Source: Nitrospirales bacterium (GTDB lineage: Bacteria; Nitrospirota; Nitrospiria; Nitrospirales; UBA8639). From it: a stretch of DNA of 64,000 nucleotides. Under the pieces are notes generated by a model. That model ran no database searches. It had not been told where the DNA came from and worked only from the letters and a program-made list of their open reading frames with translations. The translations under genes and the position numbers were made by a program. The stretch lies in assembly GCA_963555755.3 (NCBI GenBank), contig OY820905.2, positions 4,545,745 to 4,609,744 on the forward strand, read 5' to 3'. Each line of letters starts with the position of its first letter. Position 1 is the first letter of the stretch. This document shows, piece after piece, positions 30,042 to 56,560 of this stretch.

Positions 30042-31017
30042 GGACCTGAGAGAAAATAACTTGGACAATCTCGCATCCAATCTTCGGGCCATCTTTGAAC
30101 GGGCCTCAATCGAAACACCCTCACCATAGCTGTGCTATGCCTCGAGTGTTTCTCAATCGTTCCGTCCAAATCCGACCCCAATCTTGGCGCGATATTGATC
30201 AAATTATTTTCTCGCAGGTCCTTAGGGTCCGTCACGAAATAACCGAGACAATTGGCCGAGACGATTTTGGAGCGAGCCAAGGAGCGAAGAGCGCGCATAC
30301 CGGGAGTATGGAAGCGATGAGCGACGCCGGCGCAGCCCAAAAGCGTCCGGCCCTCCGGGGAGGCCCATCTTTGGCCCGGGGCGGCGTTGCTCCTCGGTCA
30401 CAGAGCCCCGCTCTGCTCCCTCGTCGCGCCTTGCCCCGATCACAAATCTGGGCCTCCCAATTGTCCCGGTTATTTCGTGACGGACCCTGAGCGCACCAAG
30501 GAGCCTGTCCAAGATTAGACCGATCTACTGCGGGTGCGCTGGATTTGGCCAGATCTTTCGATCCTTTTCGTTAAATAGTCACCACTATTCGCCTCAAACG
30601 ATCGAAACATCTGACTCAAACCAGCCCCCCCTCGTCACGATCGCTAATCTCGGACAGGCTCCTCGCAAAATACAAAAAGTCGTGGTTACCTTAGGGTTCG
30701 CGCAAAAATAACTTCCCCTGTTTGGGTGCTGAGACGCCAGTCTGGCAAGGCGCGAGGGCTGCGCATACTCCTCGTATGGAAAGGACGAGCAACGCCGCAA
30801 GACGGAATGGATCGACGCCCAAACAGGGGAGGTTATTCTTGCGCGAACCTTTAACCTAGAAACGGCAGTTGGGCGCAAAAAAGACGTGTAAGATATTGGT
30901 GTGCATGGTGAAATACAAAAAGTCGTGTCACCTCTCTGGTGATGAGACCTTTTTGTATTTTGCCAGGTGCGCCAAGGGCTTGCGCGGACTTTTGTGATCC
31001 AACTGCCGTTTCTAGGT
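30042..31017. mobile_element. MITE cluster: E (30042-30221), D (30225-30487), C (30501-30661), B (30694-30850), inverted A (30854-31017)
   Basis: TIRs of each family are present; neighbouring elements share TTA; A-derived spacers flank C. Confidence 0.85.
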
Positions 31018-31142
31018 TTAACAGTCAACAGGTCTCTTCGTTCCGTTCCTTTCCTTCTTGTAGAACCAGCTGTCCTCTTATGTGCGGTGTGGGGGCTCAC
31101 ATCACACCCCCTCCTTGATTTCCAAGGGAAAAGTTGAAATTT

Positions 31143-31204
31143 TTGTATCCGATTAGAAACAGGGCTGTATCAATCGGATACAGGGCTGTATCAATCGGAT
31201 ACAA
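31143..31204. promoter_or_regulatory. Tandem palindromic operator-like array
   Basis: Perfect 21-bp tandem ACAGGGCTGTATCAATCGGAT x2 gives TGTATC-N5-GATACA twice, plus an outer IR TTGTATCCGATT/AATCGGATACAA. Lies upstream of a response regulator. Confidence 0.5.
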
Positions 31205-31392
31205 TTCTGTTGACTACAACCCCCTTAGTAAACTATAAAATAAAAGCATTGTGGAAATATATTTTAATTTCACGCAGTTATGATATTTATGTTGTAACAC
31301 GTGTAAGATTTTTTTTGCATGAAATCTGCTTGGATATTCGAATATGGCAAGAAATTGTTCTGACAATTTTTGGAAAAACAGTCATTGACTCT

Positions 31393-31761
31393 ATGGCACC
31401 GATTTTAGTCATTGACGACGATCCGCAGGTCAATCAATTATTGCGAGATGTATTAGAGTGTGAAGGGTATCAAGTAATCACAGCGCAACGAGCCACAGAG
31501 GGGCTTCACCACTTGGAGACGACAACGATCGATCTGGTGATTACTGATGTCATCATGCCTGGTAAAGGGGGATTGGAAATCATCAGAGAGATGCGCCAAC
31601 GATATCCCCAAACCAAGATCCTGGCAATTTCAGGGGGGCTGTCAAAAGGTGGCATAGATGTGTTGGATATCGCGAAACGTTTGGGAGCGAACAGAGTGCT
31701 ATCTAAACCTTTCGTCGTGCAGGATCTCCTCCAAAGTGTTCGCATGTTGTTAGAGGCTTGA
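31393..31761 (+). CDS. Stand-alone response regulator receiver
   Basis: ILVIDDD, DLVITDVIMP, AISGG, KPF. The stop TGA is the left duplication of MITE A. Confidence 0.9.
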   Translation: MAPILVIDDDPQVNQLLRDVLECEGYQVITAQRATEGLHHLETTTIDLVITDVIMPGKGGLEIIREMRQRYPQTKILAISGGLSKGGIDVLDIAKRLGANRVLSKPFVVQDLLQSVRMLLEA

Positions 31762-32352
31762 ACCTAGAAACCGCAGTTGGATCACAAAAGTCCGCGCAAA
31801 CTCTCAGGGTCCGTCACGAAATAACCGAGACAATTGGCCGAGACGATTTTGGAGCGAGCCAAGGAGCGAAGAGCGCGCATACCGGGAGTATGGAAGCGAT
31901 GAGCGACGCCGGCGGAGCCCAAAAGCGTCCGGCCCTGCGGGGAGGCCCATCTTTGGCCCGGGGCAGCGTTGCTCCTCGGTCACAGAGCCCCGCTCTGCTC
32001 CCTCGTCGCGCCTTGCCCCGATCACAAATCTGGGCCTCCCAATTGTCCCGGTTATTTCGTGACGGACCCTGAGCGCACCTCGCAAAAGAGAAAAATGTCT
32101 CATCACCACGGAGGGTTCGCGCAAGAATACCTTCCCCGGTTTGGGTGCTGAGACACCTGTCTGGCAAGGCGCGAGGACTGCGCATACTCTCGGTATGGAA
32201 AGGACGAGCAACGCCGCCAGACGGGATGGATCGACGCCCAAACCGGGGAAGGTATTCTTGCGCGAACCCTAAGGTGACCACGACTTTTTTTATTTCACCA
32301 TGCACACCAATAGCTTACACGGCTTTTTTGCGCCCAATTGCCGTTTCTAGCT
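31762..32352. mobile_element. Composite MITE A containing D (31807-32069) and B (32113-32269)
   Basis: A TIRs with TGA duplication; D TIR GGGTCCGTCACGAAATAACCG; B TIR. Confidence 0.88.
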
Positions 32353-32526
32353 TGAATATTCCTGCCGAAATAAGTGGATGTTTACCTTCCTCATGTTTTT
32401 GTCATTTTTAAGTTTGCCAAGACACGCCTTGCTTGTTTTTTGCGTGTTGTTTCATGCAGACGACTACCCTGAATTTTGTGTGTGAATAGCCTGGTCGAGT
32501 CATTCCCTCCTTCTGGATTCTTTTCA

Positions 32527-32667
32527 GGGCACCTCTAAAAACCGTCCTTTTCCGTGATGGCGGCGTCAGCCGCGTGCTCAAATCCTCATGTATTCGCCCA
32601 TACACTCCGGTTTTCCGCGCGCAGCTTCCTTGCCCTCACAAAAAATGCCGGGTTTTTAGAGGTGCCC
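32527..32667. mobile_element. MITE G, 141 bp
   Basis: TIR GGGCACCTCTAAAAA with 4-bp duplication TTCA; second copy at 43522. Confidence 0.85.
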
Positions 32668-32840
32668 TTCAGTCACGAGATTGTTCCCTGTGGAATACTG
32701 AGAGTATAGTGGGTCCAGTGAAGTCAGCGACCACCTTTCCCCCTGACACGTGAAGGTCTTTGGAAATTGTCACCAATTCGCAGAAATTTTGAATTATTCA
32801 ACAGACTTCTCAGGGATTTTTCTGGGCAGGCAAGGGTTGA

Positions 32841-33614
32841 ACCTAGAAACCGCAGTTGGATCACAAAAGTCCGCGCAAGCTCTTAGGACCTGCGAGAAAA
32901 TCACTTGATCAATCTCGCATCCAATCTTCGGGCCATCTTTGAACGGGCCTCAATCGAAAAACCCTCACCATAGCTGTGCTATGCCTCGAGTGTGTCTCAA
33001 TCGTTCCGTCCAAATCCGACCCCAATCTTGGCGCCATATTGATCAAGTTATTTTCTCGCAGGTCCTTAGGGTCCGTCACGAAATAACCGGGACAATTGGC
33101 CGAGACGATTTTGGAGCGAGCCAAGGAGCGAAGAGCGCGCATACCGGGAGTATGGAAGCGATGAGCGACGCCGGCGGAGCCCAAAAGCGTCCGGCCCTCC
33201 GGGGAGGCCCATCTTTGGCCCGGGGCGGCGTGGCTCCTCGGTCACAGAGCCCCGCTAGGCTCCCTCGTCGTGCCTTGCCCCGATCACAAATCTTGGCCTC
33301 CCAATTGTCCCGGTTATTTCGTGACGGACCCTGAGCGCATCTGGCACAATACAAAAATGTCTCATCACCACGGAGGGCTCGCGCAAGAATAATTTCCCTT
33401 GTTTTGGTGCTGAGGCGCCTGTCTGGCAAGGCGCGAGGACGGCGCATACTCCTCGTATGGAAAGGACGAGCAACGCCGCCAGACAGGATGGATCGACGCC
33501 CAAACATGGGAAGTTATTTTTGCGCGAGCCCTAAGGTGACCACGACTTTTTGTATTTCACCATGCACACCAATATCTTACACGTCTTTTTTGCGCCCACC
33601 TGCCGTTTCTAGGT
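32841..33614. mobile_element. Composite MITE A containing E (32886-33065), D (33069-33331) and B (33375-33531)
   Basis: A TIRs with TGA duplication; same E-D tandem as at 30042-30487. Confidence 0.88.
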
Positions 33615-33697
33615 TGAAGGATGATCCGTATATGAAATGAGAAGAGCCTGGTAAAGGAAACCGGTCCCAACGACTAAATCTTTGGAGAGTAAAATTC

Positions 33698-34417
33698 ATG
33701 AAACGTCTGGATGGAAAAGTGGCTATTGTTACGGGAAGTAGTAGTGGAATTGGGAAAGCCATCGCATTGAAATTTGGTGGCGAGGGCGCGACGGTGGTGG
33801 TGACGGCCCGACGGTTGGAACTGTGTGAGCAAGTTGCCGAACAGATTCGAGTGCAGGGGGGACAGGCTGTGGCGGTGAGGACTGATGTGACCGATGAGTC
33901 TCAGGTCGATGAATTATGCAGTCAAACTATCACCAATTTTGGGCACATTGATATTCTTGTGAATAATGCCGGAGTTTTTGGTGGAGGGCTGTTAATGAAA
34001 ACCAGTACTGCTGAGTTTGACCGTGTCATGAGCACCAACTTGCGAGGGACATTTTTTTGTTGCCGCGCCGGCATTCGAATCATGATGAAACAAGGCACCG
34101 GTACCATCATCAATATGTCGAGTGTGGCTGGTGTTGAAGCATGGGCTGGAACGGGAACCTATAGTGCTTCCAAGCATGGGTTGATGGGATTGACCAAATC
34201 CTTGGCGGATGAAGCCCGGGTCCATGGGATCAAAGTATGTGCTATTTGTCCGGCAGGGGTCGCGGATGAATTAGTTGATGCCTCGGAAGAAGAAATAGTC
34301 GAGAGCCAAAAGATTAGTCCTTTTGATATTGCGGAAACGGCCCTGTATCTCGCCACTCTGGGACCCCATGCGATTGTGCGTCAGGTGGTGGTGGACAGAC
34401 TGGGGGCGGAGTGGTAA
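33698..34417 (+). CDS. SDR family oxidoreductase
   Basis: TGSSSGIG, NNAG, SS, YSASK. Confidence 0.92.
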   Translation: MKRLDGKVAIVTGSSSGIGKAIALKFGGEGATVVVTARRLELCEQVAEQIRVQGGQAVAVRTDVTDESQVDELCSQTITNFGHIDILVNNAGVFGGGLLMKTSTAEFDRVMSTNLRGTFFCCRAGIRIMMKQGTGTIINMSSVAGVEAWAGTGTYSASKHGLMGLTKSLADEARVHGIKVCAICPAGVADELVDASEEEIVESQKISPFDIAETALYLATLGPHAIVRQVVVDRLGAEW

Positions 34418-34423
34418 GAAGGG

Positions 34424-34544
34424 GTGGCTTTTGCAAAAGGCCGCCAGCGGCGTTCTCGGGTTTTTGTCGTCCTCACGTACTCCATGTACGCTGCGGGCGC
34501 CAAACCCCCTGCGGCCTTGCTGGACAGCCTTTTTCAACAGCCCC
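34424..34544. mobile_element. MITE F copy
   Basis: CCAGCGGCGTTCTCGG...CGTAC...GTACG...GCGGCCTTGCTGG core; right end TTTTTCAACAGCCCC. Confidence 0.75.
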
Positions 34545-34667
34545 AAGAGGCCGATGAATGCCACTACACGTCCATGAAAAAGTCTGGCAAGCGGAGATAA
34601 AAAGACTGAAATGAGTCATCTTCCTTAAATCCGGATGCAAGAGCTGCGACGGTTTGTCTTTCTGATC

Positions 34668-35066
34668 CTATTCCTTTTCTTTGAACCGTAACGAGGCGGA
34701 GTTAATACAGTATCGCTGCTTGGTTGGCGCTGGCCCATCGGGGAACACATGTCCAAGATGGGCATCGCACCGAGAACATTGGACCTCGACTCTCGTCATG
34801 CCGAGATTATGGTCGGCATGGGTGTCTAACGCTGAGTCTGTTGCCGGTTGGGTGAAGCTTGGCCACCCGGTTCCCGAGTCAAACTTATCGTCTGATTGAA
34901 ACAATGGGGTGCCACAACAGATACAGTGATACGTTCCCTCTTCTTTATGGCTGTAATAGGTACCGCTATATGAGGGTTCGGTTCCATGCTGGCGTGTTAC
35001 ATAAAACTGTTCCGGTGTCAATTGTTGTTGCCATTCCTCATCAGGTTTTTGTAGCTTGGCGGCCAT
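34668..35066 (-). CDS. msrB: Peptide-methionine (R)-S-oxide reductase
   Basis: GTE, CICC, KFDSGTGWPSF, CSRCDAHLGHVF.DGP, RYCINS. Confidence 0.95.
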   Translation of the reverse strand: MAAKLQKPDEEWQQQLTPEQFYVTRQHGTEPSYSGTYYSHKEEGTYHCICCGTPLFQSDDKFDSGTGWPSFTQPATDSALDTHADHNLGMTRVEVQCSRCDAHLGHVFPDGPAPTKQRYCINSASLRFKEKE

Positions 35067-35179
35067 GGATATCTTCCTTAAACGCGGGTTATAAAAAGGG
35101 ATGTTCTGATCAGTCGATTCCACTCAAGAATCATAGCACACATGACGGTCAAAAGGGGGCTGTTCCAAACTTGTCCTAA

Positions 35180-35336
35180 GGGCTCGCGCAAGAATAACTT
35201 CCCCTGTTTGAGCGTCGATCCATCCCGTCTGGCGGCGCTGCTCGTCCTTTCCATACGAGGGGTATGCGCAGTCCTCGCGCCTTGCCAGACAGGTGTCTCA
35301 CCACCCAAACAGGGGAAGTTATTTTTGCGCGAACCC
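35180..35336. mobile_element. Stand-alone MITE B, 157 bp
   Basis: ~33-bp TIR, TAA duplication in CTAAG. Confidence 0.88.
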
Positions 35337-35725
35337 TAAGGTAAGTCAAAGGTTTTTTTGCAGCATTCTGCTAGGCCAGGCAGTCGATAGGGGGGCAGGT
35401 TTGGCTGTTGAAGGTAATGGCAGGCAGGCCCCACCAATTCTGAAGCAGGGTCGAGTGTCGACGTCGATAGTCCACGGAAAACCGTAAATCACTATTTTGA
35501 AAAATTGTAGTGTTCCACTCTGCCCTTGTCTTATAGAGCCCCTCTACACCGTGAAGGTCATCCGGAAAAGGCCTTCCAATTGTGTCATGTCGAACGGATG
35601 TGAGAAATCCTTGAAAGGTTGGAAGAGATCTCTCGCTTTGCTCGAGACAAGGATTTCTCCCGTTGGTCGATATGACAAGGGACTTAGATCCATCGAATAC
35701 GTAACCGCTTTTATTCAAGACTACA

Positions 35726-36388
35726 CTAATAACTCTCCCGCTTGAGACATGAGTTGGCGAGATCGATCCCGTCTCGTTGGCAGGTGGCAGCGAGAAGCTG
35801 ATAGTGCGCTGACGAATCCGTCACCGCGGTGAGGTGAAGAGTCTGGCAGAGCTGAATGGTATAGACTAACGATGCGCTGGTTTTAATCAAGGCCCAGCCA
35901 TATTCAAAGCGAGGGCCGTCTTTGGGAGAATGCGCCGAACGGCTGAGGGCTTGGACTATCTCCACATCATAGGGTGTTTCCATCCAATCAGTTGGAGCCA
36001 ACTTCGTCAAAATTGAATGATCGTCAGATGCCGGGTTCCCAGGTTGTGGGATCTGAGATGTATCAAACAGTCCGCGCTGAAAACGATAGTTACTCAATAA
36101 GGCTTCGTGAAAGAGTGCTCGCCAAGACGTATCCGACAAGTCACGATTCACAGCGTCAATTATCTCGGTATTCAATGGTCCACTCACGTCATGTCCCTGC
36201 ACAATCCGGCCAGCCTTGAACAGCTTGGGATAGGAGTCACCCATGCGATCGGGAAACGCTGTTGTTCCCATCAAAGGTGTTAGGCGTAGCGCCATGAAAT
36301 CGCGAAAGTGTACGGTCTCATAGTCTGCTAGAAGACTATGAAGCGTGCGTTCATGGCACAGATGAAAAGGATAAAAGAGTGCGTTCAT
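35726..36388 (-). CDS. Hypothetical protein
   Basis: ORF starting MNALFYPFHLC; the upstream extension in the ORF track comes from the mini-A repeat. Confidence 0.7.
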   Translation of the reverse strand: MNALFYPFHLCHERTLHSLLADYETVHFRDFMALRLTPLMGTTAFPDRMGDSYPKLFKAGRIVQGHDVSGPLNTEIIDAVNRDLSDTSWRALFHEALLSNYRFQRGLFDTSQIPQPGNPASDDHSILTKLAPTDWMETPYDVEIVQALSRSAHSPKDGPRFEYGWALIKTSASLVYTIQLCQTLHLTAVTDSSAHYQLLAATCQRDGIDLANSCLKRESY

Positions 36389-36429
36389 ACAATGGGAATG
36401 TAGAACATTGTGAAGAGGGGCGAGATTGA

Positions 36430-36471
36430 ACCTAGAAATGGCAGTTGGACGCCCAAGTGCCGTTTCCAGGT
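36430..36471. repeat. Mini-A: the two MITE A TIRs fused with the interior deleted
   Basis: ACCTAGAAATGGCAGTTGG-ACGC-CCAAGTGCCGTTTCCAGGT. Confidence 0.8.
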
Positions 36472-36533
36472 TCAAGTGCGCACCTTTGCCAGGTTGGGCA
36501 AAAGGTGCGCAGAGAGATTAGGGAACCGGGAAT

Positions 36534-36890
36534 TTACTTACGTTCCTTGATTGCATCTTGATAGGCCTTGTCTTGGGCCAGCCAGTCGAGTCGGAGGCGT
36601 TCGGAAATTGCTTTTGCCTGATTATGGCGTTCCACGCGAGTCTCTTGATTTTTGATCGAGGCTTTGACGGCGTCGCTTATGACATACGAACTTTGTTGGC
36701 CAAAGAGGATTCGGATGGTTTCAGGATGCGGGTTCAATTTTCGGTGCTCGCAATACTTTTTGCCAGCCTCAGTCAAACTGCCATCATGTTCTTCGGTTAG
36801 GGGTGTGGTCCCAGGTGGCACATCCCCCCCAGTAAACCCATATAATTTTCCAATTTCTCCCTCGGCATAACGTATTTTCGCATCTCCCAT
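36534..36890 (-). CDS. Hypothetical protein
   Basis: 118-aa ORF with AAGGA upstream. Confidence 0.6.
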   Translation of the reverse strand: MGDAKIRYAEGEIGKLYGFTGGDVPPGTTPLTEEHDGSLTEAGKKYCEHRKLNPHPETIRILFGQQSSYVISDAVKASIKNQETRVERHNQAKAISERLRLDWLAQDKAYQDAIKERK

Positions 36891-37030
36891 GTGGTCATTC
36901 CTTTGTGTGTAGAGATTGAATAAAAGTAGCGAAGTCAGCCGGAGGAGGTGGTGAGGCCCAGCAGGGTGACTTCAGGATAAATCATAAGGAACAATGAACA
37001 AGAACCTTCAGTTTAGAGAGTAGCCTCTTA

Positions 37031-37187
37031 GGGCTCGCGCAAGAATAACTTCCCTTGTTTGGGCGTCGATCCATCCCGTCTCGCCGCGTTGCTCGTCCTT
37101 TCCATACGAGGAGTATGCGCAGTCCTCGCGCCTTGCTAGACAGGTGTCTCAGCACCCAAACAGGGGAAGTTATTCTTGCGCGAACCC
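37031..37187. mobile_element. Stand-alone MITE B, 157 bp
   Basis: B TIRs flanked by CTTA and TAAG. Confidence 0.88.
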
Positions 37188-37261
37188 TAAGTGTATATGT
37201 TTTTTGTGAAAATTTCTAAGGGTTTAAAATGGCCGTCATCAAAGGGCGACCGCACGGTGTA

Positions 37262-38332
37262 TCACACGTTGAATTTAAAGTGACAGACATCGCCGTCTTT
37301 CACTACATATTCTTTGCCTTCAGAGCGGATCAGGCCTTTCTCACGGAGCGCCGGCTCTGAGCCATATTGGTCGAGGTCCGTGAAGCCATAGATGTCAGCC
37401 TTAATAAAACCCTTCTCAAAGTCTGAGTGTATGACGCCGGCAGCTTGAAGTGCCTTCGCCTCTTCAGGGATCGTCCAGGCTCGGACTTCGTCCGGGCCAC
37501 CCGTGAAGTACGAGCACAATCCAAGGGTTTTGTACGCTGTCACAATGACTTTTTCCAGCCCACTTTGTTTTATGCCCAAGTCTTGCATAAACAAGTCGCG
37601 GTCTTCTCCGGACAACTCCGCAATTTCGCTTTCGAGTTTGCCGCAAATCACGGCTGATTCTGATCCGCGCTCCTTGGTAAAGACCTGAAAATCAGCAATG
37701 ACGGCTTGGTCCGGGTCCTCATCGGTGTTTCCGACATACAGGATGGGCTTGGACGTGAGCAGAAAGAAAGGCTTGAGTACCTCAGGGTCGAGGCTCAATG
37801 CTCGTACGGGTTTGCCTTCTTCAAGGCCGTTCTTAAGAATTTCAAGAAATTCCAGCGCCTCTTTCGATGCCTTGTCGCCGGCCCTCGCTTTGCCCGAGAC
37901 TTTGTCGAATTGCTTCGTGATGCTTTCCAAATCGGCCAACATTAGCTCGGTTTCAATTACCTCGATATCCCGCTTCGGATCAATGTTTCCAAGTGTATGC
38001 ACAACATCATCATCTTTGAAGAGGCGGACCATGTGCATAATCGCGTCCACTTCACGAATGTTGGCTAAGAATTTGTTGCCAAGGCCTTCGCCAGTCGCTG
38101 CGCCTTTGACGAGGCCGGCGATGTCAACAAAACGGCAGGAGGCCGGAATGGTTTTCTTGGGCTTGAACAGTTCCGTAAGGCGGTCAAGACGTATGTCTGG
38201 GACCGCTACGATACCGACATTAGGTTCGATCGTGGCAAACGGATAATTCGACGCAACCGCGCCTCCGGATGTCAGCGCATTAAAAATCGTCGATTTGCCG
38301 ACGTTGGGAAGCCCGACAATGCCAATTTCCAT
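37262..38332 (-). CDS. ychF: Redox-regulated ribosome-binding ATPase YchF
   Basis: GLPNVGKST, NYPFATIEPN, DIAGLVKGA, GVIHSDFEKGFI, EGKEYVVKDGD. Confidence 0.96.
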   Translation of the reverse strand: MEIGIVGLPNVGKSTIFNALTSGGAVASNYPFATIEPNVGIVAVPDIRLDRLTELFKPKKTIPASCRFVDIAGLVKGAATGEGLGNKFLANIREVDAIMHMVRLFKDDDVVHTLGNIDPKRDIEVIETELMLADLESITKQFDKVSGKARAGDKASKEALEFLEILKNGLEEGKPVRALSLDPEVLKPFFLLTSKPILYVGNTDEDPDQAVIADFQVFTKERGSESAVICGKLESEIAELSGEDRDLFMQDLGIKQSGLEKVIVTAYKTLGLCSYFTGGPDEVRAWTIPEEAKALQAAGVIHSDFEKGFIKADIYGFTDLDQYGSEPALREKGLIRSEGKEYVVKDGDVCHFKFNV

Positions 38333-39155: not shown

Positions 39156-41189
39156 GTGCGCCTGTGAAGGCGTTTGATCAGGAGGGTGCAAGTCCCTCTC
39201 AGGCGAACGTTACCAGCCTGAAGTCGACAGTGGTAACTGCGTTTCCGTGAGGAAGGGTGGAGAGCAATCTGAGACGAACGACCAGTCCGTAACGAACGTG
39301 AACTCGATTCGGCCAAGCCTGTCGGGGAGGCTCCTAGCGATGTCCGAACCCTTGATCGCGCGACGGCAGATCCCTTCGACCTGAGAGTCTGCCCGGGGGA
39401 TAGACGCGGCAAGTCACGGCGGTGACGTAACGTGGGAAAGCGACCGTGGCGAAATGGCAAGGTGGTGGTTGGAGATGGAATGGTCGGAAGGTCAAACGAG
39501 CTAAGCAGGGAGATCTGTCGGGTGAAGGACGTGGACGACGTGTCGTGACCATTCGCAGTGGGGGACGCTGCGTGATCAATGGCCCAGGCCCCTCGGTGCC
39601 GTATCGCGTGCCGCAGGGGAACGAACGAAGCGATGCCGATGACGTTGGATGAAGCGGCTCGACAGAAGTCAGAGCTCTCATAATAGCTGGGAAGCCGTGC
39701 AGCATAACGCGGTGGAGCAAAGGGGAGCAGGAAGGTAGATGTGAAATGACTAAACCGCCGACACGTCGAGCCTCGACCCCGCGTCGAGATTACATCCCAG
39801 TCACAGTGCCGTTTTCGGCTACCCCGGCTGGGGAGCTTCCTGGGATCGACCAGTGGGCTCATCGAGCGGTTTGGACAGATCGCATGGTGGCGACACTGAT
39901 GGCAGACAAAGTGAGAGGAGGCAAATGGCACACGTTGAGGGATAAGGTGTCTGGCAGCCTGAACCTGTCCTGCTCGGCCAAGAAGGTCCTGGGCAAGAAC
40001 GGGGCTGCGGGCGTTGACCGGCAAACGTGTTCGGAGTTCGCCGAGCATGAGCGGGCGGAACTCGATCGGTTGCAAGCCGAACTGGGTGACGGAACCTATC
40101 GTCCGGCAGCGGGGCGGCGGCGGTGGATTTCCAAACCCGACAGGTCGGCGAAGCGCCCGTTGGGAATTCCGACCGTGCGGGATCGCGTCGTGCAAACGGC
40201 AGTGGTCCACGTGCTTGAGCCGATTATGGACGCCATGTTCCATGCGCGAAGCTTCGGCTTTCGCCACGGACGCGGGTGCCATGATGCCCTACGGTGCGTC
40301 GAGGAATGGCTCGACGCCGGGTATGTGTATGTTGTCGACGCGGATGTGCAGGAGTACTACGAGACGATTCCGAAAGATCGACTGTTGGCCAGAGTGCAAC
40401 AGAAGATCTCGGATCGCCGTGTGTTGGGCCTGGTGAAGAAGTTTCTGAACCAGGGGATTCTGGAAGAACTGCGGGAGTGGACGCCGGAAGCCGGTGTGCC
40501 GCAAGGCGCGGTGCTGTCTCCCATGCTGTCGAATGTCTATCTCAACCCCCTGGACCATCGGATGTCCGATCTCGGATTTCAGATGGTGCGCTACGCGGAT
40601 GACTTTGTCATCCTGTGTCGCACGCCGGAAGAAGCCGAAGCGGCGCTGGCCGAGGTGCGCCGGTGGGTGGAGGCCAAGGGGCTGACACTGCATCCCGAGA
40701 AAACACACATCGTGGACTCGCGGGAGAAGAGCTTTTCGTTTCTGGGCTATTCGTTCCGAGGCCGGCTGCGGTTTCCACGAGCGAAGAGCCACCGAAAGTT
40801 CATCGCCCGCATCCGCGAGCTGACGCCGCAGAAATCGGGCGACTCGCTGGCGGTAATTCTCCACCGGCTCACTCGCTCGACGCAAGGGTGGTTCAACTAC
40901 TTTCGGCACTGTTTTTGGAACATCTTCAAGGCCTACGATGGAATGATCCGTCGGCGGTTGCGCCGGATGCTTCTGAAAAGGAACCGAAGGAATCGACAAC
41001 GCCTCGCACGCAATCAACGGTGGCCGAACGCCTTCTTTGCGGATCATGGGTTCACGAGCCTGAATGATGCCCATATTCGTTTCGTCCACTCCATAGGAAC
41101 CTACTGACTGGAGAGCCGTATGCGGGAGAACTGCACGTACGGTTCGGAGGGAGGGGGAGCGCAACTCAATGCGCCCTCCCTACCCCTAT
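39156..41189 (+). mobile_element. Complete group II intron (IEP lacks endonuclease domain)
   Basis: 5' end GTGCG at 39156. Domain V GAGCCGTATGCGGGAGAACTGCACGTACGGTTC (41113-41145, AGC triad). Domain VI with bulged A at ~41182 and ...CCCCTAT end. Confidence 0.92.
39746..41107 (+). CDS. ltrA: Group II intron reverse transcriptase/maturase
   Basis: AAGVD, RPLGIPTVRDRVVQ, SFGFR, VDAD, GVPQGAVLSP, RYADD, FSFLGY, domain X GWFNYF; no HNH domain. Confidence 0.93.
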   Translation: MTKPPTRRASTPRRDYIPVTVPFSATPAGELPGIDQWAHRAVWTDRMVATLMADKVRGGKWHTLRDKVSGSLNLSCSAKKVLGKNGAAGVDRQTCSEFAEHERAELDRLQAELGDGTYRPAAGRRRWISKPDRSAKRPLGIPTVRDRVVQTAVVHVLEPIMDAMFHARSFGFRHGRGCHDALRCVEEWLDAGYVYVVDADVQEYYETIPKDRLLARVQQKISDRRVLGLVKKFLNQGILEELREWTPEAGVPQGAVLSPMLSNVYLNPLDHRMSDLGFQMVRYADDFVILCRTPEEAEAALAEVRRWVEAKGLTLHPEKTHIVDSREKSFSFLGYSFRGRLRFPRAKSHRKFIARIRELTPQKSGDSLAVILHRLTRSTQGWFNYFRHCFWNIFKAYDGMIRRRLRRMLLKRNRRNRQRLARNQRWPNAFFADHGFTSLNDAHIRFVHSIGTY

Positions 41190-41318
41190 CCTAAAAATAC
41201 AAGACGACGCCATTCGCGCAAAAGGAGAGGCGACATAACCCACGAGGAGTGCCATAAATTTATGTGCACCTGATCGTATTGTGCTGCCAGAACCCTACAT
41301 TCTGCATGATCCCAAACG

Positions 41319-42896
41319 ATGTTGTTACACAATGTAGGACATTCAAGAGGTATGTTGGCATTGGCCATGATGGCCCTATTCGTTCCAGCGATCACATTCG
41401 GCCAGGAAACGGACATAACGCAAACACCGAATGCCGCCAATGCAGGCATTAAAAAATCCTTGGAAGACCAAATCGGGGAGGGTCGTGGAGATATCAACAC
41501 TCCTGACTCATCGCATTTCATCATTAAGAGAGATCCCTTTCGGGCCATTGCCCGGGGACGCCAACTGTTTCAGCGCAAATTCACCATTGCCCAAGGGATG
41601 GGACCACGCACCGATGATGGAATTGGCGATATCGAAACGGAGCTGTCTCTAGGAGTAGGTTTGGCCGACAGTTGTGCAGCATGTCATGGCCGACCAAGGG
41701 GAGCGGCCGGATTTGGTGGAGATGTTTTTACGCGTCCCGACAGTCGGGATGCTCAACATTTATTTGGGTTAGGCATTAAAGAAATGCTTGCTGATGAAAT
41801 CACACAGGATGATAGTGCAATCAATCAGGCCGAAGGTCTGGGTAGCCCGGTTACGGTGCAGCTCAACAGTAAGGGCATTCACTTTGGAAAAATCACCGTA
41901 AATTCTGATGGAACCTATGTCCCTTCTGACATTAAGGGTGTCGATGATGATCTTCGCGTTCGTCCCTTTTTCCATCACGGAGGAACGATCTCAATCCGAG
42001 AATTTGTCGTCGGGGCGCTCAACGCGGAGATGGGCCTTGAAGCTGTTGATCCCGAACTTGTCGATGCAGCCGCTGGCGGCTCCTTTGTCACCTTGTCGGG
42101 AATGGTTCTGGATGGTTCACAAGATTCCATTGAAAGCCCTGTTGCGGTCAATGATGCTGACGATCCGGATTCCGATGGAGTCGTCAATGAAGTTCCGGAA
42201 AGTCTTGTCGATTTTCTAGAATTTTATTTATTGAACTATTTTAAGCCAGCAACTTATCAGAATACGAGAGGTACAAAGAGTGGCCAACGGATCATGAAAG
42301 AAATTCGGTGCACAAACTGCCACGTGCCAAATCTCACGATCAGTCATGATCGCCGAGTGGCCGACGTGGAAACGCGGTATGATCGCAAACAGGGCATCTT
42401 CAATAATATGTTCGCCACCGCCTCGACGTTATTCAACGAGGAGGATGACGGCACTGGCCACCCGACCATCAAATCCCCGATTGGAGGCTCTTTTAAGGTA
42501 AAAAACATTTACACGGATTTTAAACGCCACGACTTAGGTCCTAACTTTCATGAGCGCAATTTTGATGGGGAGCTCCGAACCGAGTTTTTTACAACCGCGT
42601 TATGGGGAGTAGGCACCACTCCTTCATATGGTCATGACGGACGATCCATCAATTTACGTGAGGTCATCCTTCGTCATGGTGGAGAAGCCCAAGACTCCAG
42701 GGAGGCGTTTGCCCGGTTATCAAAAGACCGGCAAGCACACGTGATCGAGTTCTTGCAATCGTTGGTGTTGTTCGGCCCACCGGATACAGCGTCGAATCTC
42801 AATCCCGGTGATCCCAATACACCCAACTTTCCACAAGAAGGCCACGGGAGCATCGACCTATCTGTGCTCTTTAACGATCCAACTGATCCGGAATAA
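41319..42896 (+). CDS. Exported di-heme oxidoreductase (DHOR/thiol-oxidoreductase-like)
   Basis: Signal peptide; two CxxCH motifs (CAACH, CTNCH); YTDFKRHDLG, T.LWGVG, YGHDGR...ILRHGGEA. Confidence 0.82.
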   Translation: MLLHNVGHSRGMLALAMMALFVPAITFGQETDITQTPNAANAGIKKSLEDQIGEGRGDINTPDSSHFIIKRDPFRAIARGRQLFQRKFTIAQGMGPRTDDGIGDIETELSLGVGLADSCAACHGRPRGAAGFGGDVFTRPDSRDAQHLFGLGIKEMLADEITQDDSAINQAEGLGSPVTVQLNSKGIHFGKITVNSDGTYVPSDIKGVDDDLRVRPFFHHGGTISIREFVVGALNAEMGLEAVDPELVDAAAGGSFVTLSGMVLDGSQDSIESPVAVNDADDPDSDGVVNEVPESLVDFLEFYLLNYFKPATYQNTRGTKSGQRIMKEIRCTNCHVPNLTISHDRRVADVETRYDRKQGIFNNMFATASTLFNEEDDGTGHPTIKSPIGGSFKVKNIYTDFKRHDLGPNFHERNFDGELRTEFFTTALWGVGTTPSYGHDGRSINLREVILRHGGEAQDSREAFARLSKDRQAHVIEFLQSLVLFGPPDTASNLNPGDPNTPNFPQEGHGSIDLSVLFNDPTDPE

Positions 42897-42927
42897 TCGG
42901 GAAGAAAAGAAGAAGACTGAGTTCTTG

Positions 42928-42961
42928 CCAAGGCATCAGGGGGAACAACCTGATGCCTTGG
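42928..42961. terminator. Strong hairpin between convergent genes
   Basis: 13-bp perfect stem CCAAGGCATCAGG / CCTGATGCCTTGG; no clear U tract. Confidence 0.5.
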
Positions 42962-43027
42962 TTGGAGATGCGTGTGGCCCTTGGATAGAGTTGCGGGGGG
43001 GGAGGGTACACCATTCAAGACCCGACC

Positions 43028-43348
43028 CTACTTCTTCTTTTTTTTGGATTTCCCCCACGTTTCTTTTAGCAGGGTCTTCCACTCCTCGCGAGAAATCGCT
43101 GGCATGGTCTTAATACGAATATGGCCCATCGAGGCATTCAGCACACCGGCCTTCATCGCGGCGCGATTATGCGGAAAATCCCAAATGGCCACAACATCAT
43201 ACTCACCCAAGCAATAATAGGCGTGAAGCAATTTGCCGCCCAAGGCTTCCACATTCTGCTTGACCATGTCTGACCGAGCCTCACCTTTAGCCCTCATGGT
43301 CTTCAGTCCATCATGGGTAAAGTTCACTAAGCTGACGTAGATTGGCAT
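43028..43348 (-). CDS. GYD domain protein
   Basis: MPIYVSLVNFT..G...VEALGGKL..AYY.LGEYDVVAI. Confidence 0.85.
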   Translation of the reverse strand: MPIYVSLVNFTHDGLKTMRAKGEARSDMVKQNVEALGGKLLHAYYCLGEYDVVAIWDFPHNRAAMKAGVLNASMGHIRIKTMPAISREEWKTLLKETWGKSKKKKK

Positions 43349-43521
43349 GGTGCACCCCTTGGTTGGTGACGTGAATAATAAAGCGCTCGTGTTTGAGGGA
43401 AGATGTGAGTATCCTAAATGAAAAGCCAGATAAAGGATAGCCACTTTTCTGATGACTGGTCAGGCGAAGGACGAATCCAACCTGACGCAAGACCAATGGG
43501 AATTTTTAAATATTAAATAAA

Positions 43522-43662
43522 GGGTACCTCTAAAAATCGTCCTTTTCCGTGATGGCGGCGTCAGCCGCGTGTTCACATCCTCATGTATTCGCCCATACAC
43601 TCCGGTTTTCCGTGCGCGGCTTCCTTGCCCTCACAAAAAATGCCTGGTTTGTAGAGGTGCCT
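43522..43662. mobile_element. MITE G, 141 bp
   Basis: Homologous to 32527-32667; 4-bp duplication TAAA. Confidence 0.85.
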
Positions 43663-43987
43663 TAAAGGAAAAGGCGAGCAACCGGTCATGAGAAATAGAA
43701 CGCCGCCTGTGAAGTATTGAAGTGAAAAAATCATGGCAAGGGGCGTCAAGAAATATTAAATGATGCACGATTCAAGACCTGACCTTTTACGTTTTGGAAT
43801 GGTTCAAGCGTACCTTTGATGCCGGTGCCGTATGGAGTTACGAGGAAATCACGTTCTGCAAGGTTTTCGGAATCTTCTGAGTATCTGCATTCCCAGAAGA
43901 AAAGAACTAGGCTAATTTTGAACAATGAAGTTAAAAAAACTCCCGACCCCTTTCTGTTTTCTTGGAGCGCATGTTTTGTTAAGCAGC

Positions 43988-44155
43988 CTACGTCTCCTCA
44001 CCCCCATCAAGGCAGTTCGTGCATTCATCCAATTTGGGTTCTCCATGGTTGCTGCAATAATGACGGGAGCATCGTGCGCAGACCATAAAACTCATGAGTA
44101 TCGTATCCGCTTCCTCGCACACATAACAATTTTTTTCTCGTTTGGCTTTCGGCAT
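43988..44155 (-). CDS. 55-aa Cys/His-rich putative zinc-finger protein (absent from ORF track)
   Basis: MPKAKREKNCYVCEEADTILMSFMVCARCSRHYCSNHGEPKLDECTNCLDGGEET; AAGGAG 7 nt before the ATG. Confidence 0.7.
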   Translation of the reverse strand: MPKAKREKNCYVCEEADTILMSFMVCARCSRHYCSNHGEPKLDECTNCLDGGEET

Positions 44156-44455
44156 ATTTCTTCTCCTTCATCGTGATCATGTAAGGCGCCATTTGCCGCA
44201 AAGCCATCCCCGACGGTGTTGGGGTGGGGCAAGGATCCTAGTGTGTCATTTCCGGCCGAGGGCTTGGACCCCACTATTGGCGGGAAGTCGGGAAGGGCGT
44301 CTATCTAGTGAAGACGCGAGGATGTTGCGCTGATTGGTAACAGGGTGAGACTACCGTATGACACCACTGTATAGCAAACTAGCGAGGTTTGATCGCATGG
44401 TGCTGATCAAGTCATAATCAAGGAAATACACAACCCTCTTTCTCCCACGTTTGAC

Positions 44456-45316
44456 ATGTCCATTCAATGGTTTCCCGGTCACATGAATACGGCGCGCCGA
44501 GAGGCCGCCAAGACGATAGCCTCCATCGATGTCATCGTCGAAGTGCTGGATGCTCGTATACCAGAAGCCAGCAGCAATCCGATGATCACGGAATTGCGGC
44601 GGCAGTGCCAGCGTCCTTGCCTGAAAGTTCTCAACAAAGCCGACCTTGCTGACCCCGCCGTCACCCAAGCCTGGTTGAACAAGTATAACCAGGAAACTGG
44701 CGTGAATGCCGTAGCCCTTGCCGGTAATCGCGTTGGGCAAGCCGCCAAGGTCCCCAGTCTGTGTCAACCTCTCGCCAAGCATCGCAGCACGACCACGAAA
44801 CCGCTACGCATGCTGATCATGGGCATTCCGAATGTTGGCAAATCCACACTCATGAACACGTTGCTCAAACGCCGCATCACAAAAGTGGGCAACGAACCCG
44901 CTGTGACAAAAAAACAGCAACGCCACACTCTCAACGACCGAATGACGCTCATCGACTCCCCGGGCCTTTTGTGGCCAAAAATCAAAGACCCGGTCGTGGG
45001 TTTTCTGCTCGCCACGATCCATGCGATTGGCGCCAATGCTGTCGTCGATGAAGAAATCGCCGAGTTTCTCGCAACCACTCTCCTTACACGCTACCCAGGA
45101 CTGCTCACGGCGCGGTATGGATTTGGGGAAGATGGGCTAGATGGCGCAGGCGTGCTTGAATCCATTGCCATCAAACGGGGATGCTTGCGTAAAGGAAAGG
45201 GCGGGGAACTAGACAGAGAAAAAGCCGCAAAAATTTTGCTAAACGAATACCGCAACGGCACATTAGGCCGCACGAGCCTGGAGTCTCCAACCACGCCTGA
45301 GGTCCCTACCGTATAA
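44456..45316 (+). CDS. rbgA: Ribosome biogenesis GTPase RbgA/YlqF
   Basis: IQWFPGHM, DARIP, NKADL, GIPNVGKST, DSPG (circularly permuted GTPase). Confidence 0.93.
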   Translation: MSIQWFPGHMNTARREAAKTIASIDVIVEVLDARIPEASSNPMITELRRQCQRPCLKVLNKADLADPAVTQAWLNKYNQETGVNAVALAGNRVGQAAKVPSLCQPLAKHRSTTTKPLRMLIMGIPNVGKSTLMNTLLKRRITKVGNEPAVTKKQQRHTLNDRMTLIDSPGLLWPKIKDPVVGFLLATIHAIGANAVVDEEIAEFLATTLLTRYPGLLTARYGFGEDGLDGAGVLESIAIKRGCLRKGKGGELDREKAAKILLNEYRNGTLGRTSLESPTTPEVPTV

Positions 45317-45527
45317 TCATTCACCTCGTAGGCCCGACTGTCACGATAGACAGAAAATCACCGTACCAACATTCCCCGCTACTAGGCTTTCAGAGGAAAG
45401 GTCTAGGGAAAAAAGCAACTCGATCATGGTCTTTGATCATCGTCAGGACTCTTGTTCGGGGATGACCTGTCACCAGACGCGGCGTATCCGGTCCTGTGTC
45501 AACAATCCAAATGAGCGACACGCAGGC

Positions 45528-46070
45528 TTAGTCGTCCAGCATGGGCTCAGGGACCCCACCGATCATCGAAAAAATCAGCCCGCCAATCACGGCTTGTACA
45601 ATCCATCCAATAAGACATACGCCAATGGCTCGGTACGTACTGTGATAATCCAAGGCTTGGCGCACGGCAATCACCATGGCCACGAGCATCCACACACTCG
45701 CAAGAAGATTCACAATAGCGTCTAAGCCTGGAATGATGCCGAGAATCCGAATGATGCCTGGGGCGCTCGAAAAGCCAATTGTCCGAAGCAGTTCACCATG
45801 ATCAGCAGAGGTTTGGGGTTCGGGCAAAAGTTTCGTGCCAATGATGTAGGTCAAAAAAGCCCAGATATACCATCCGAGCAAGGAAAAAACCGTGCCGAGC
45901 AACAGCCCCATCAGCCCGGATTCTTGCATGAACCCAATCCCACCGGCCACGCTTGATAATACGACGACGGCCATCGCCTGGCTCATCGCATTCTTGTCGG
46001 CCTCCACTTCTTCATAGACCTGAACATCGAGTTTTGCCGCTCGTACCATCCGATCAACAAACTGGGTCAT
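45528..46070 (-). CDS. YIP1 family membrane protein, copy 1
   Basis: RMVRAAKLD...YEEVEAD, multiple TMs, LLRTIGFSSAPG, VIAVRQALD. Confidence 0.8.
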   Translation of the reverse strand: MTQFVDRMVRAAKLDVQVYEEVEADKNAMSQAMAVVVLSSVAGGIGFMQESGLMGLLLGTVFSLLGWYIWAFLTYIIGTKLLPEPQTSADHGELLRTIGFSSAPGIIRILGIIPGLDAIVNLLASVWMLVAMVIAVRQALDYHSTYRAIGVCLIGWIVQAVIGGLIFSMIGGVPEPMLDD

Positions 46071-46339
46071 AATGGTCGATCTCCTTTCCCTCACGAGGGA
46101 TAATGTACATGAAAAATGAAAAGATTGGTGCCCTAGGGGGAAGACAAGAAGCAATTATGAGGAACAGGCTGAGAAAGATCTACTCTTTTTCGGTGGGGAA
46201 TCAACTGAAATTTTGATGAGGGGAATTCGTGTAGCGAATGATCAAGGGAAATGGGGCTGATTCTTGGCCCTTCATCCGTTGTCCGCCGTGCCCGAAGTGG
46301 TCGGCGGGCATCCCTTCTCATGTCGGCATTTTTCCTTCT

Positions 46340-46456
46340 GTCATTCCCGCCATTTGCAATCGAGAATCCATCCACATTTCGTCATTCCCGCCATTTTTAA
46401 TCGGGAATCCATCTTCAAATTTCCTCTCCTTTGTAAGGAGAGGGCAAGTGAGGTAG
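46340..46456. repeat. REP-like palindrome cluster
   Basis: Two GTCATTCCCG-N10-CG(A/G)GAATCCA units, then CCTCTCCTT-TGT-AAGGAGAGG. Confidence 0.65.
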
Positions 46457-46466
46457 AGTCTTAAGC

Positions 46467-47315
46467 ATGAACGTAGATCTCATCATTCGAATCAGCGCGT
46501 TTGTGGGAATCTTCGCCGCGATGGCTGTGTGGGAAATGATGTCGCCACGTCGTCAATGGCAGGTGGCCAAAGCCAAGCGCTGGGTGATCAATCTGGCCAT
46601 GGTGGGATTCAACACGCTCTTCACCCGAACCCTCTTAGCCTCAGGCGTCTTAGGGGCGGCGGTCCTGGCAGGGCAGAGAGAGGTGGGGCTCTTCCATCAA
46701 CTGGATTGGCCTTGGTGGGCAGAACTCATCATCGCAATGATCGTGTTGGATTTGGTGGTGTATTTTCAACATGTGCTCATGCATGCCGTCCCCATACTCT
46801 GGCGATTACACATGGTGCATCATTCCGATTTAGATATCGATGTGACCACCGGCGTTCGGTTTCACCCGATCGAAATTGCTCTGTCGATGTTCATCAAAAT
46901 CGGAGCCGTTATTTTGATAGGCGTGTCACCCACCGCCGTGCTCATATTCGAGGTCATGCTAAATGCGACCTCCATGTTCAACCATAGTAACGTGTGCATT
47001 CCCGTGCAGGTGGATCGCATGCTCAGGTGGATCGTGGTCACCCCCGACATGCATCGGATTCATCATTCCGTCATCCCACGAGAGACCAACCGTAACTTTG
47101 GATTTAACTTGCCGTGGTGGGATCGTGTGCTCGGCACGTACCTGAGTGATCCTAGCAAAGGACATGAACAAATGACGATCGGTCTTGAACAGTACCGAGA
47201 CTCTACCCGGCTCACCTGGCTGGGCCTCGTGGCCTTACCGTTTGTCGGAGAAATCGGGAAATACCCAACGTGGCATGACGAACAGAACGAAGTCGAAACC
47301 GAAAACGAAAAATGA
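46467..47315 (+). CDS. Sterol desaturase / fatty-acid hydroxylase family protein
   Basis: His boxes HVLMH, HMVHH, RFHP, NHSN, HRIHH; NFG...WWDR..GTY. Confidence 0.9.
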   Translation: MNVDLIIRISAFVGIFAAMAVWEMMSPRRQWQVAKAKRWVINLAMVGFNTLFTRTLLASGVLGAAVLAGQREVGLFHQLDWPWWAELIIAMIVLDLVVYFQHVLMHAVPILWRLHMVHHSDLDIDVTTGVRFHPIEIALSMFIKIGAVILIGVSPTAVLIFEVMLNATSMFNHSNVCIPVQVDRMLRWIVVTPDMHRIHHSVIPRETNRNFGFNLPWWDRVLGTYLSDPSKGHEQMTIGLEQYRDSTRLTWLGLVALPFVGEIGKYPTWHDEQNEVETENEK

Positions 47316-47433
47316 ATGAGATGGTGGTCGAAAAGAATCCGAAACCTAGCACTGATTTGCCAAGAAATTTCTGTCGTATGAGAAGTGAAATCTCCTTATT
47401 CCCCGGTGCTCTGCAAAGGGGTAACTATTAATG

Positions 47434-47467
47434 TCCCCCCTTTGGAAAAGGGGGGTAGGGGGATTTT
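47434..47467. repeat. REP-like palindrome between convergent genes
   Basis: CCCCCCTTT-GGA-AAAGGGGGG followed by TAGGGGGATTT. Confidence 0.55.
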
Positions 47468-47498
47468 CCAATCATATTGTTTCCTTTAATAGCGGCGC

Positions 47499-48041
47499 TT
47501 AGTTATCCAGCATTGGCTCAGGGGGTCCACCCATCATCGTAAAAATCAATCCAATAATCACGGCTTGCACAATCCATCCAATAATACACACGCCAATGGC
47601 TCGGTACGTACTGTGATAATCCAAGGCTTGGCGCACGGCAATCACCATGGCCACGAGCATCCATATACTCGCAAGGATATTCACAATTGGGCCTAAGCCA
47701 GGAATAATGCCGAAAATCCGAATCATACCGGGGGAGCTCGAAAAGCCAATCGTCCGAAGCAGTTCACCATGATCAGCAGAGGTTTGGGGTTCAGGCAGAA
47801 GTTTCGTGCCAATGATGTAGGTCAAAAAAGCCCAGACATACCATCCGAGCAAGGACATGACCGTGCCCATCAACAACCCCGTCAGCCCGGATTCTTGCAT
47901 GAACCCAATACCACCGGCCACGCTTGATAACACGACAACGGTCATTGCCTGGCCCATGGAACTTTTGTCGGCTTCCACTTCTTCATAGACCTGAACGTCG
48001 AGTTTGGCAGCGCGTACCATTCGATCAACAATCTGAGTCAT
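47499..48041 (-). CDS. YIP1 family membrane protein, copy 2
   Basis: Colinear, same-length paralog of 45528-46070. Confidence 0.8.
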   Translation of the reverse strand: MTQIVDRMVRAAKLDVQVYEEVEADKSSMGQAMTVVVLSSVAGGIGFMQESGLTGLLMGTVMSLLGWYVWAFLTYIIGTKLLPEPQTSADHGELLRTIGFSSSPGMIRIFGIIPGLGPIVNILASIWMLVAMVIAVRQALDYHSTYRAIGVCIIGWIVQAVIIGLIFTMMGGPPEPMLDN

Positions 48042-48309
48042 AATGGTCGACCTCCTTTCCCTCACAAGGGATAATTTTCACTAGAATTGAAAAGGATTGT
48101 GCCTAATGGGAAGACAAGAAGCAATTATGCGGAACAGGTTGAGAGAAATCTATCATTCTTCGGTGAGGAATCAACTAAAATTTGGATGAGGAGAATTTGT
48201 TTGGCGAACGTTCAAGGAAAAGATTTCTGAGCCTTTCTTCATTTCCTAAAAATAAATCTGTCCCCTTTTCTTTTTTCTCAAAATGATTATCTAGGGACTT
48301 ATTGCTTTA

Positions 48310-48798
48310 ACCTAGAAACGGCAGTTGGGCGCAAAACAAACGTGTAAGATATTGGTGTGCATGGTGAAATAAAAAAAGTCGTGGTCACCTTAGGGCTCGC
48401 GCAACAATAACTTTCCCTGTTTGGGCGTCGATCCATCCCGTCTGGCGGCGTTGCTCGTCCTTTCCATACGAGGAGTATGCGCAGTCCTCGCGCCTTGCCA
48501 GACAGGTGTCTCAGCACCCAAACAGGGAAAGTTATTGTTGCGCGAACCCTTAGTGGTGATGAGACATTTTTTATTTTGCCATGTGCGCCTAGGAGCCTGT
48601 CCGAGATTAGGGATCGTTGCGAGGGGGTGCTGGTTTGAGTCAGATGTTTCGATCGTTTGAGGCGCATAGTAGTGCCTATTTAACGAAAAGGATCGGGAGA
48701 TCTGGCCAAATCCAGCGCACCCACAGTAGATCCGTCTAATCTTGGACAGGCTCCTTGAGCTTGCGCGGACTTTTGTGATCCAACTGCCGTTTCTAGGT
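48310..48798. mobile_element. Inverted composite MITE A containing B (48393-48549) and C (48593-48753)
   Basis: A TIRs; B with TTA/TTA duplication; C sits at a different site in A than at 15840. Confidence 0.88.
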
Positions 48799-56330: not shown

Positions 56331-56560
56331 AGCCTTCTAGCACATCAACCAATAACCCATTTATTTTTTTGCCTTCAATGGCACCAGTCGTATATTCAAT
56401 TCGATTGCCTTCTGATTTATGAATTGAGGCATGTATTATCTGATCGGCATCGCAAACCACAGCAAGGTTTAGGAAAAGTACATAATTATTGTTCATGATT
56501 TTTTGTCAGTGGAGAGGGGATGGAAAATTATCATTATCTTCTTCCCTTTGGATTCTCCTC

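Follow-up and report, generated by a model that had tools for sequence, protein, structure and literature searches.

Core-bearing elements of the window

The window analysed here is a stretch of 64,000 nucleotides from a Nitrospirales bacterium (GenBank assembly GCA_963555755.3, contig OY820905.2, positions 4,545,745 to 4,609,744 of the forward strand), and positions below are counted within it. It is rich in MITEs (miniature transposable elements with inverted repeats), and a sequence-only reading had proposed that several of their families (B, D, F and G) share one structured core beneath different ends. We found the five cores concerned at the positions proposed, with the stems and tips described. 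The B element (48393..48549; ends GGG(T/C)TCGCGCAA) is nested within another MITE and has a TTA duplication on either side (48390-48392 and 48550-48552). Its core (48442..48501, purine-rich strand on the minus strand) comprises a closing stem, an AAGGC/AACGC basal motif, two GA/GA tandems, a GCGC/GGAA motif and a 5-bp tip hairpin. The D element (30225..30487; ends GGGTCCGTCACGAAA) contains two cores in opposite orientation: a 5' core of the AAGGA/GACGC type (30274..30333, purine strand plus), whose closing stem GCGCC/GGCTC, absent from the list of the earlier reading, has one mismatch, and a 3' core of the AAGGC/AACGC type (30378..30437, purine strand minus), with GAGC/GTGA beneath the tip. 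The F element (34421..34544; ends GGG(A/G)(A/C)TGTT(C/G)AAAA, the left end degenerate in this copy) carries a core of the long mid-stem class, with arms of 20 and 18 nt (34444..34523, purine strand minus). The G element (32527..32667; ends GGGCACCTCTA(A/C)AAA) is flanked by a TTCA duplication (32523-32526 and 32668-32671). Its AAGGA/GACGC core (32559..32634, purine strand minus) belongs to a subfamily shared with RPE1 and with family H, a fifth end type that the earlier reading did not include.

These families have terminal inverted repeats, no transposase gene and main length classes of 120-265 bp between paired ends. Family B measures about 157 bp (143 paired copies), with an exact 3-bp duplication in 57%; D measures about 263 bp (35 paired copies), with an exact duplication in 23%, and single-core D derivatives exist too. 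Family G is 141 bp long, and 80% of its 112 paired copies have an exact 4-bp duplication. An exact 8-bp duplication is found in 45% of 20 copies of H. Copies of F are mostly 120-150 bp long and show no clear target duplication. As a possible trace of mobility at the present day, one contig from a DNA run omits the G element at 32522-32668, the short side of the junction being only 25 letters long.

The B core and both D cores align without gaps across 62 columns. Read on the purine strand, they show Watson-Crick pairs in alternation with GA/GA tandems, and the intervening pairs vary in concert (G-C, C-G, A-T). The basal motif is pseudo-symmetric (AA-G-GC opposite AA-C-GC), and a second, equally conserved motif lies beneath the tip, in addition to the tandem GA/GA pairs of the stem; the earlier reading had noted neither of these two features. 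We predict that the purine-rich strand folds into a rod in which stretches of Watson-Crick pairing take turns with tandems of sheared purine pairs. Its basal motif would be a G-C pair between two tandems, each GA/GA or GC/AA, probably in sheared geometry. What had been described as a purine-rich internal loop is present as a sequence, and is better understood as a set of non-canonical pairs. The reported association of the loop halves, GGCGTT with GCCTT and GGCGTC with TCCTT, holds; it is read here as C·A swapped for A·G on the purine strand. As sheared pairs, C·A and A·G would be interchangeable. The same swap recurs beneath the tip, with GCG/GAA in B versus GAG/TGA in the D 3' core. Within families, paired positions have often changed on both arms: pair 37/86 of F is G-C in 108 copies and C-G in 34, and pair 19/141 of B is A-T in 119 and C-G in 28. 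An alternative fold, in which AA is bulged and GG(C) pairs with GCC, is chosen by the energy model for B and the D 3' core; it fails for the AAGGA and ...ACGCA variants and was not retained as the structure shared by all.

Abundance, spread and covariation of the core

The core is present about 700 times in the 4.6-Mb genome, within the five MITE families B, D, F, G and H. A structural descriptor (closing stem, AAGG, tip motif, RACGC), built from the same window cores that it counts, gave 464 genomic sites, far more than chance would give: the reversed genome had none, and two shuffled genomes had 0 and 2. A simpler scan gave 272 sites versus 4-9 in the controls, and BLAST with seven window cores as queries gave 724 loci, partial matches counted. 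Only 9 of the roughly 700 cores fall inside predicted genes; location and orientation relative to genes were judged from the 3849 calls of a simple in-house predictor.

To look beyond this genome, GTDB was scanned with a pattern consisting of the tip motif and RACGC only, AAGG being left open. The scan returned at least 119 loci, 115 of which were parsed into 118 distinct matches. Among these listed matches, exact AAGG stood at the mirror position in 73 of the 118, where simple arithmetic predicts about 3%. At the swapped position, the 73 read C·A in 60 cases, A·G in 10, G·A in 2, A·A in 1 and C·G in none (Fisher 2e-11), and with one match per 70% cluster the C·A/A·G counts are 49/10 (p=1.5e-10). 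The first two closing pairs are Watson-Crick in 93% and 97%, the second of them with three common pair types. The other 45 matches differ by one or more changes, many alphaproteobacterial ones being without the basal motif. Exact matches among those listed fall in 11 phyla, which we assigned by hand from the record titles: Pseudomonadota, Nitrospirota, Desulfobacterota, Bacillota, Bacteroidota, Acidobacteriota, Planctomycetota, Campylobacterota, Myxococcota, Actinomycetota and Elusimicrobiota. Among them, family F has its closest named relatives in Nitrospira and Nitrospirales records.

The reverse test, in which AAGG and the tip were specified and the 3' half was left open, was run on viral contigs. 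The 3' half stood at the mirror position in 45 of 83 loci, and the 32 distinct cores read C·A in 24 cases, A·G in 6 and C·G in 2. GA/GA accounts for 58 of 102 2x2 loops. In 62 long-class elements, the mid-stem arms have a median identity of 37.5% across genomes and still pair with their own partner (0.58, versus 0.30 for swapped arms; p=1e-17), which argues against a recent descent of the families from one element. In an alignment of 26 short cores that was fitted to the model, and leans towards it, both sides change at 14 of 17 pairs, a number reached by none of 500 shuffles. The covariation proposed from the window thus holds in independent cross-phylum sets, namely the GTDB matches, the viral contigs and the 26-core alignment. 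Elements with two cores in opposite orientation, as in D, also occur in other genomes (L250, L106 and L111), one of them an Elusimicrobiota record.

Further copies lie in the window itself. B copies are found at 16035..16191 (plus), 30694-30850, 32113-32269, 33375-33531, 35180-35336 and 37031-37187, D copies at 31807..32069 and 33069-33331, and a second G copy at 43522..43662 (minus). Family F is also present at 62382..62503 (plus) and, with the purine strand on the minus strand, at 24078-24198 and 29464-29638. In some F copies (such as the last, or that at G000:C1:19491), the rod is lengthened by small REP-like hairpins, containing GA tandems or GNA loops, that are inserted at fixed sites and leave the core untouched. 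A hybrid element at 10662..10821 (minus) has a B left end and a D right end enclosing a B-type core.

Two other families carry variants of the motifs. Family E (30041..30222, minus; ends AGGACCTG(C/A)GAGAAA; another copy at 32885-33066) has a rotated basal motif, with AACGA on the 5' arm and GAGGC on the 3' arm, and GAGGC/GGTGA beneath the tip; 119 E copies cover the centre. Family O2 (30498..30664, minus; ends TAGGAGCCTGTC) has GAGGC/AACGA immediately beneath the tip, with 49 copies covering the centre, and its ends are also found on 1670-bp elements that bear a transposase gene. The element at 30853-31018 and similar ones, with ends AACCTAGAAAC, form a core-less MITE family, an imperfect palindrome kept through G-T pairs on one strand (11 G-T versus 2 A-C pairs); G-T is used there in place of the core motif. 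Families B, D, E and O2 nest in this family and in one another at TNA sites, giving composites of 430-940 bp. Apart from MITEs, the window contains a group II intron at 39746-41189, with a reverse transcriptase/maturase (TIGR04416, E=1.7e-102) and a match to domain V-VI RNA. Gene duplicates lie at 45526-48221 and 55257-61835: two Yip1-domain genes, two S4-domain genes and a RapA C-terminal fragment adjoining a full RapA.

Selection on the core and its possible mode of action

We compared alleles among 163 copies of B, 162 of F and 123 of G, an allele being counted as shared when found in 10 or more copies. Shared alleles made up 2 of the 162 possible at motif sites versus 65 of 837 elsewhere (p=0.0009). 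Single-copy alleles were not depleted there, with 34 of 162 versus 141 of 837 (p=0.21). Of the shared changes, two fall in the motif (GGAA to GTAA and GGAG to GCAG), and both are variants found in other families. Per site, shared alleles amounted to 0.037 at non-canonical sites, 0.167 in terminal repeats and 0.233 elsewhere, and alleles in up to four copies, pooled, to 8.2 per 1000 at motif sites versus 12.0. In D, E and O2, where three motif patterns were unmatched and their sites were tallied as "other", shared alleles were again depleted at motif sites (1 of 153 versus 83 of 1413). Across families, the single-copy rate at motif sites is above that elsewhere in four and below it in two. Since the motif is avoided by shared and mostly not by single-copy variants, the core probably works for the amplification of the element itself. 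Most simply, copies would decay once inserted, and new subfamilies would be founded by intact ones only; selection at individual loci may act to some extent as well. The data point to selection on the amplification of the element rather than on a host function at each locus. Overall, the analysis supports the earlier proposal of an interior that is structured, strand-specific and under selection, and that has been joined to differing transposon ends; none of the three outcomes named beforehand as refuting it was obtained.

It is also conceivable that the core has no function, being an ancestral MITE interior kept by descent, with arm-to-arm conversion preserving the pairing and chance bursts of master copies giving the numbers. 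The double arm changes of F and B are what conversion across a fold-back would give, and presence is patchy: of 60 other genomes in the phylum, with only 88 candidates scored in each, 5 had a short-class match. Conversion would, however, replace mismatches by Watson-Crick pairs, whereas the sites of non-canonical pairing are conserved best of all, and they covary, C·A with A·G, across phyla. We regard this explanation as quite improbable.

The partners of the MITEs also bear on the question. The ends of family H match twelve 2413-bp elements that lack any core and encode an IS66 transposase (E=9e-88). For family H, therefore, the core is not a remnant of the parent insertion sequence (IS). A second gene of this IS66 partner, of 295 aa (L002:1559-2446), has no NCBIfam match. 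Two other candidate partners were rejected. An IS630-like gene between B ends (L001, G000:C1:2332331-2333548) is flanked by two inverted B left arms, the core being gone. An IS110-like element (L003, G000:C1:1893133-1894492, with a 343-aa frame) is inserted into F between end and core; at this locus and about 11 like it, the insertion repeatedly occupies one site of a small hairpin module in F. Both family labels are our assumption from the starts of the proteins.

On our preferred reading, which we hold at about even strength, these MITEs are built on one old and widespread core whose fold would act in cis to aid the copying of the element, most likely as single-stranded DNA. Each family would be moved by a transposase reading its own ends. 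As the movers differ with the ends, the core would have to help in a generic way, perhaps by drawing the two nearby ends together, or by stabilising or marking the strand once it is excised or unwound, on exposed DNA such as a lagging-strand template. Families G and H and RPE1 have near-identical upper cores beneath three kinds of ends. Ends were probably swapped by the copying of one IS end across the fold-back onto both arms, which would explain new symmetric ends.

Several results weigh against this preferred reading. No autonomous partner of B, D, F or G was found among the genome's elements with matching ends, and a MITE family termed "outer", which lacks the motif, has spread to more than 100 end-pairs, so that a MITE can succeed without the core. 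Single-copy alleles too are depleted at the motif sites of D, E and O2 (14 of 153 versus 242 of 1413, p=0.011). The purine strand is not biased towards the lagging-strand template (leading:lagging 88:87 for B, 69:66 for G and 136:163 for F), and a DNA energy model does not recover the rod. GA/GA tandems have no preferred flanks (YR 24, RY 21, mixed 13), and among 1x1 pairs G-T and A·G are about equally frequent (74 versus 79), so neither test favours DNA. Finally, at the GTDB loci beside rRNA or tRNA genes the purine strand is in the transcript in 10 of 10 cases.

This last result would be expected if the core worked as RNA, the rod being tolerated, protected or processed in transcripts or serving as an RNA intermediate or helper in copying, so that copies with an intact fold survive or spread better. 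We consider this unlikely overall, although several lines speak for it. An RNA energy model yields the rod for the D 5' core and for G, with z down to -4.5 for single cores, and in one Klebsiella genome all 7 fetched 23S-5S spacers contain a sense rod, with compensatory differences. According to the available text of PMC2229807, ERIC RNA in one orientation affects mRNA decay through RNase E, and RPEs are located in tmRNA and M1 RNA. Against this, rRNA copies are kept alike by homogenisation and mostly run in the direction of replication, so that their orientation would not separate RNA from exposed DNA. When 23S-5S spacers were sampled across the family, the rod was found in 1 of 29, namely the query's own, and we rejected it as a general feature of Enterobacteriaceae. 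Near protein genes of this genome the purine strand has no consistent sense bias (strand counts relative to neighbouring genes 65:53 for B, 45:32 for G and 83:112 for F), and F leans antisense downstream of genes (107:39). The tip loops are unconstrained, with 103 kinds in the 118 GTDB matches listed and TTCG once, and neither UUCG nor GNRA is in excess; such free tip loops are atypical of structured RNAs. Core rods without obvious IS ends lie in sense in 23S-5S spacers of Klebsiella indica, Kosakonia and Enterobacter records (L271-L277, L148 and L225), one spacer subtype having a second AAGGA/GACAC motif near the base.

Instead of acting by its fold in general, the core could be recognised by a dedicated protein, which would read the basal and tip motifs, as RAYT does REP hairpins, and start or assist mobilisation, with the IS ends finishing the process. 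The conservation of sequence beyond pairing across the 11 phyla, such as the C-G closing pair in 66 of the 73 AAGG matches, is consistent with this. So are the few classes of distance from end to AAGG (26-27 in F, 36 in G and H, 53-55 in B and D) and the rotated motif of family E. The lengths of the duplications, however, follow the ends and not the core, and no multi-copy gene of the genome is tied to the cores apart from the IS110-like insertion in F, co-occurrence across genomes not having been searched. A dedicated protein appears rather improbable, and we retain action in cis, probably as a folded single strand of DNA, as the better account.

Relation to known repeats

The sequence-only reading regarded the elements as a candidate undescribed system. 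In that form this is not supported: they are known MITEs, and the best-known members, ERIC and RPE1, were described long ago. ERIC-type loci (L042, L050, L066 and L100) share with the core a closing stem, the order AAGGC ... AAC(G/A)CA and GAGC-stem-loop-stem-GTGA. Both ERIC-PCR primer sites, sequences printed alongside the name ERIC in 257 papers listed, are present in eight core loci. One of these matches E. coli chromosomes at 100% identity, and 5426 of 5426 genomes contain a match; in this primer-bearing E. coli copy, the 3' half of the basal motif is altered. The short-core model R1 does not match the two ERIC loci given to it, so the ERIC link rests on motif layout. ERIC/IRU is a MITE of about 127 bp with TA-flanked ends (PMC2229807, PMC3184786), and differs from the window families in its ends and duplications. 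In the available text of these two sources, no internal motif common to ERIC and other MITE families is described, and one statement there is that DNA motifs other than terminal inverted repeats "have not been found".

The link to RPE1 came from protein models. Translated H cores match RPE1 (TIGR01045) alone among 18,950 NCBIfam models, at E of about 1e-3 and 19 bits, below the cut-off of 30. Signals of this model occur at 110 places of the genome, all below the cut-off, the best of 21.2 bits and covering the centre only. By eye, 15 RPE1 loci above the cut-off have the AGGA/GAC inner half in 12 and GAC in all 15, and their upper stem is close to those of G and H. The outer half of the basal motif is relaxed (AAGGA in 5 of 15), and RPE1 often lies in frame inside genes, unlike the cores of this genome.

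Other repeats resemble the core less closely. In the 155-bp Correia/NEMIS element, the available text of PMC2229807 likewise proposes that a MITE interior, an internal IHF site, aids transposition; there, by description, a duplex protein site serves a single family, whereas here a non-canonical fold lies beneath unrelated ends. REP/RAYT hairpins (PMC3733652) and Streptomyces telomere hairpins with sheared G:A pairs (PMC5449611) offer an analogy, as described in the available text, of folded single-stranded DNA with non-canonical purine pairs that is read by proteins. The core, however, has no GTAG or CGTC tag and no GNA triloop, its tip loops being 4-8 nt long in all 118 GTDB matches listed even though the pattern allowed 3. 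REP palindromes are 20-40 bp long, whereas the cores are 60-80 nt and lie inside inverted ends with duplications. No linked HUH gene was found among the genome's multi-copy elements. In Rfam 15, no family reached its gathering score on the window cores or on 40 relatives; the narrow models V_AS5 (RF02818) and Ysr49 (RF02766) match ERIC-type loci below threshold, with 50.6 of 96 and 29.7 of 95 bits, and leave the window cores unmatched.

Flavo-1 and Clostridiales-1, considered as similar, were rejected: neither matched, the first alignment rows look unrelated, and six short core words searched in the alignment archive of the corresponding paper gave one unrelated match. What we take to be one Streptococcus BOX primer had a single chance match in a coding region, too little to judge BOX. 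We found no paper uniting these repeats by a shared core in the open-access literature, which misses most subscription papers. The available text of PMC3184786, PMC10969869, PMC2229807, PMC11602168, PMC5896051, PMC3049150, PMC3733652, PMC5449611 and PMC2864571 names no core common to MITE families. What appears undescribed is that these repeats have a covarying, non-canonical core in common, and that there is a sign of this core serving amplification.

According to the available text of PMC11602168, bacterial MITEs are usually regarded as genus-specific deletion relics of IS elements. The core described here persists across phyla, under stricter conservation than the terminal repeats, and is absent from the sole autonomous partner found, which suggests that many MITEs belong to a long-lived lineage with a selected interior. 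If so, ERIC, used for decades in strain typing, and RPE1 would join one family. More tentatively, and with somewhat less than even confidence, ERIC, RPE1 and many unnamed MITEs of at least 11 bacterial phyla may form one ancient superfamily. Its sheared-pair core would be a transposase-independent mobility enhancer, active as a folded single strand with any DDE transposase and outliving its helpers by end swaps. The old question of why such repeats keep a fold and reach hundreds of copies would then become a matter of testable point mutants. If it is true that the core boosts transposition in cis, it would be a new kind of part for short transposons.

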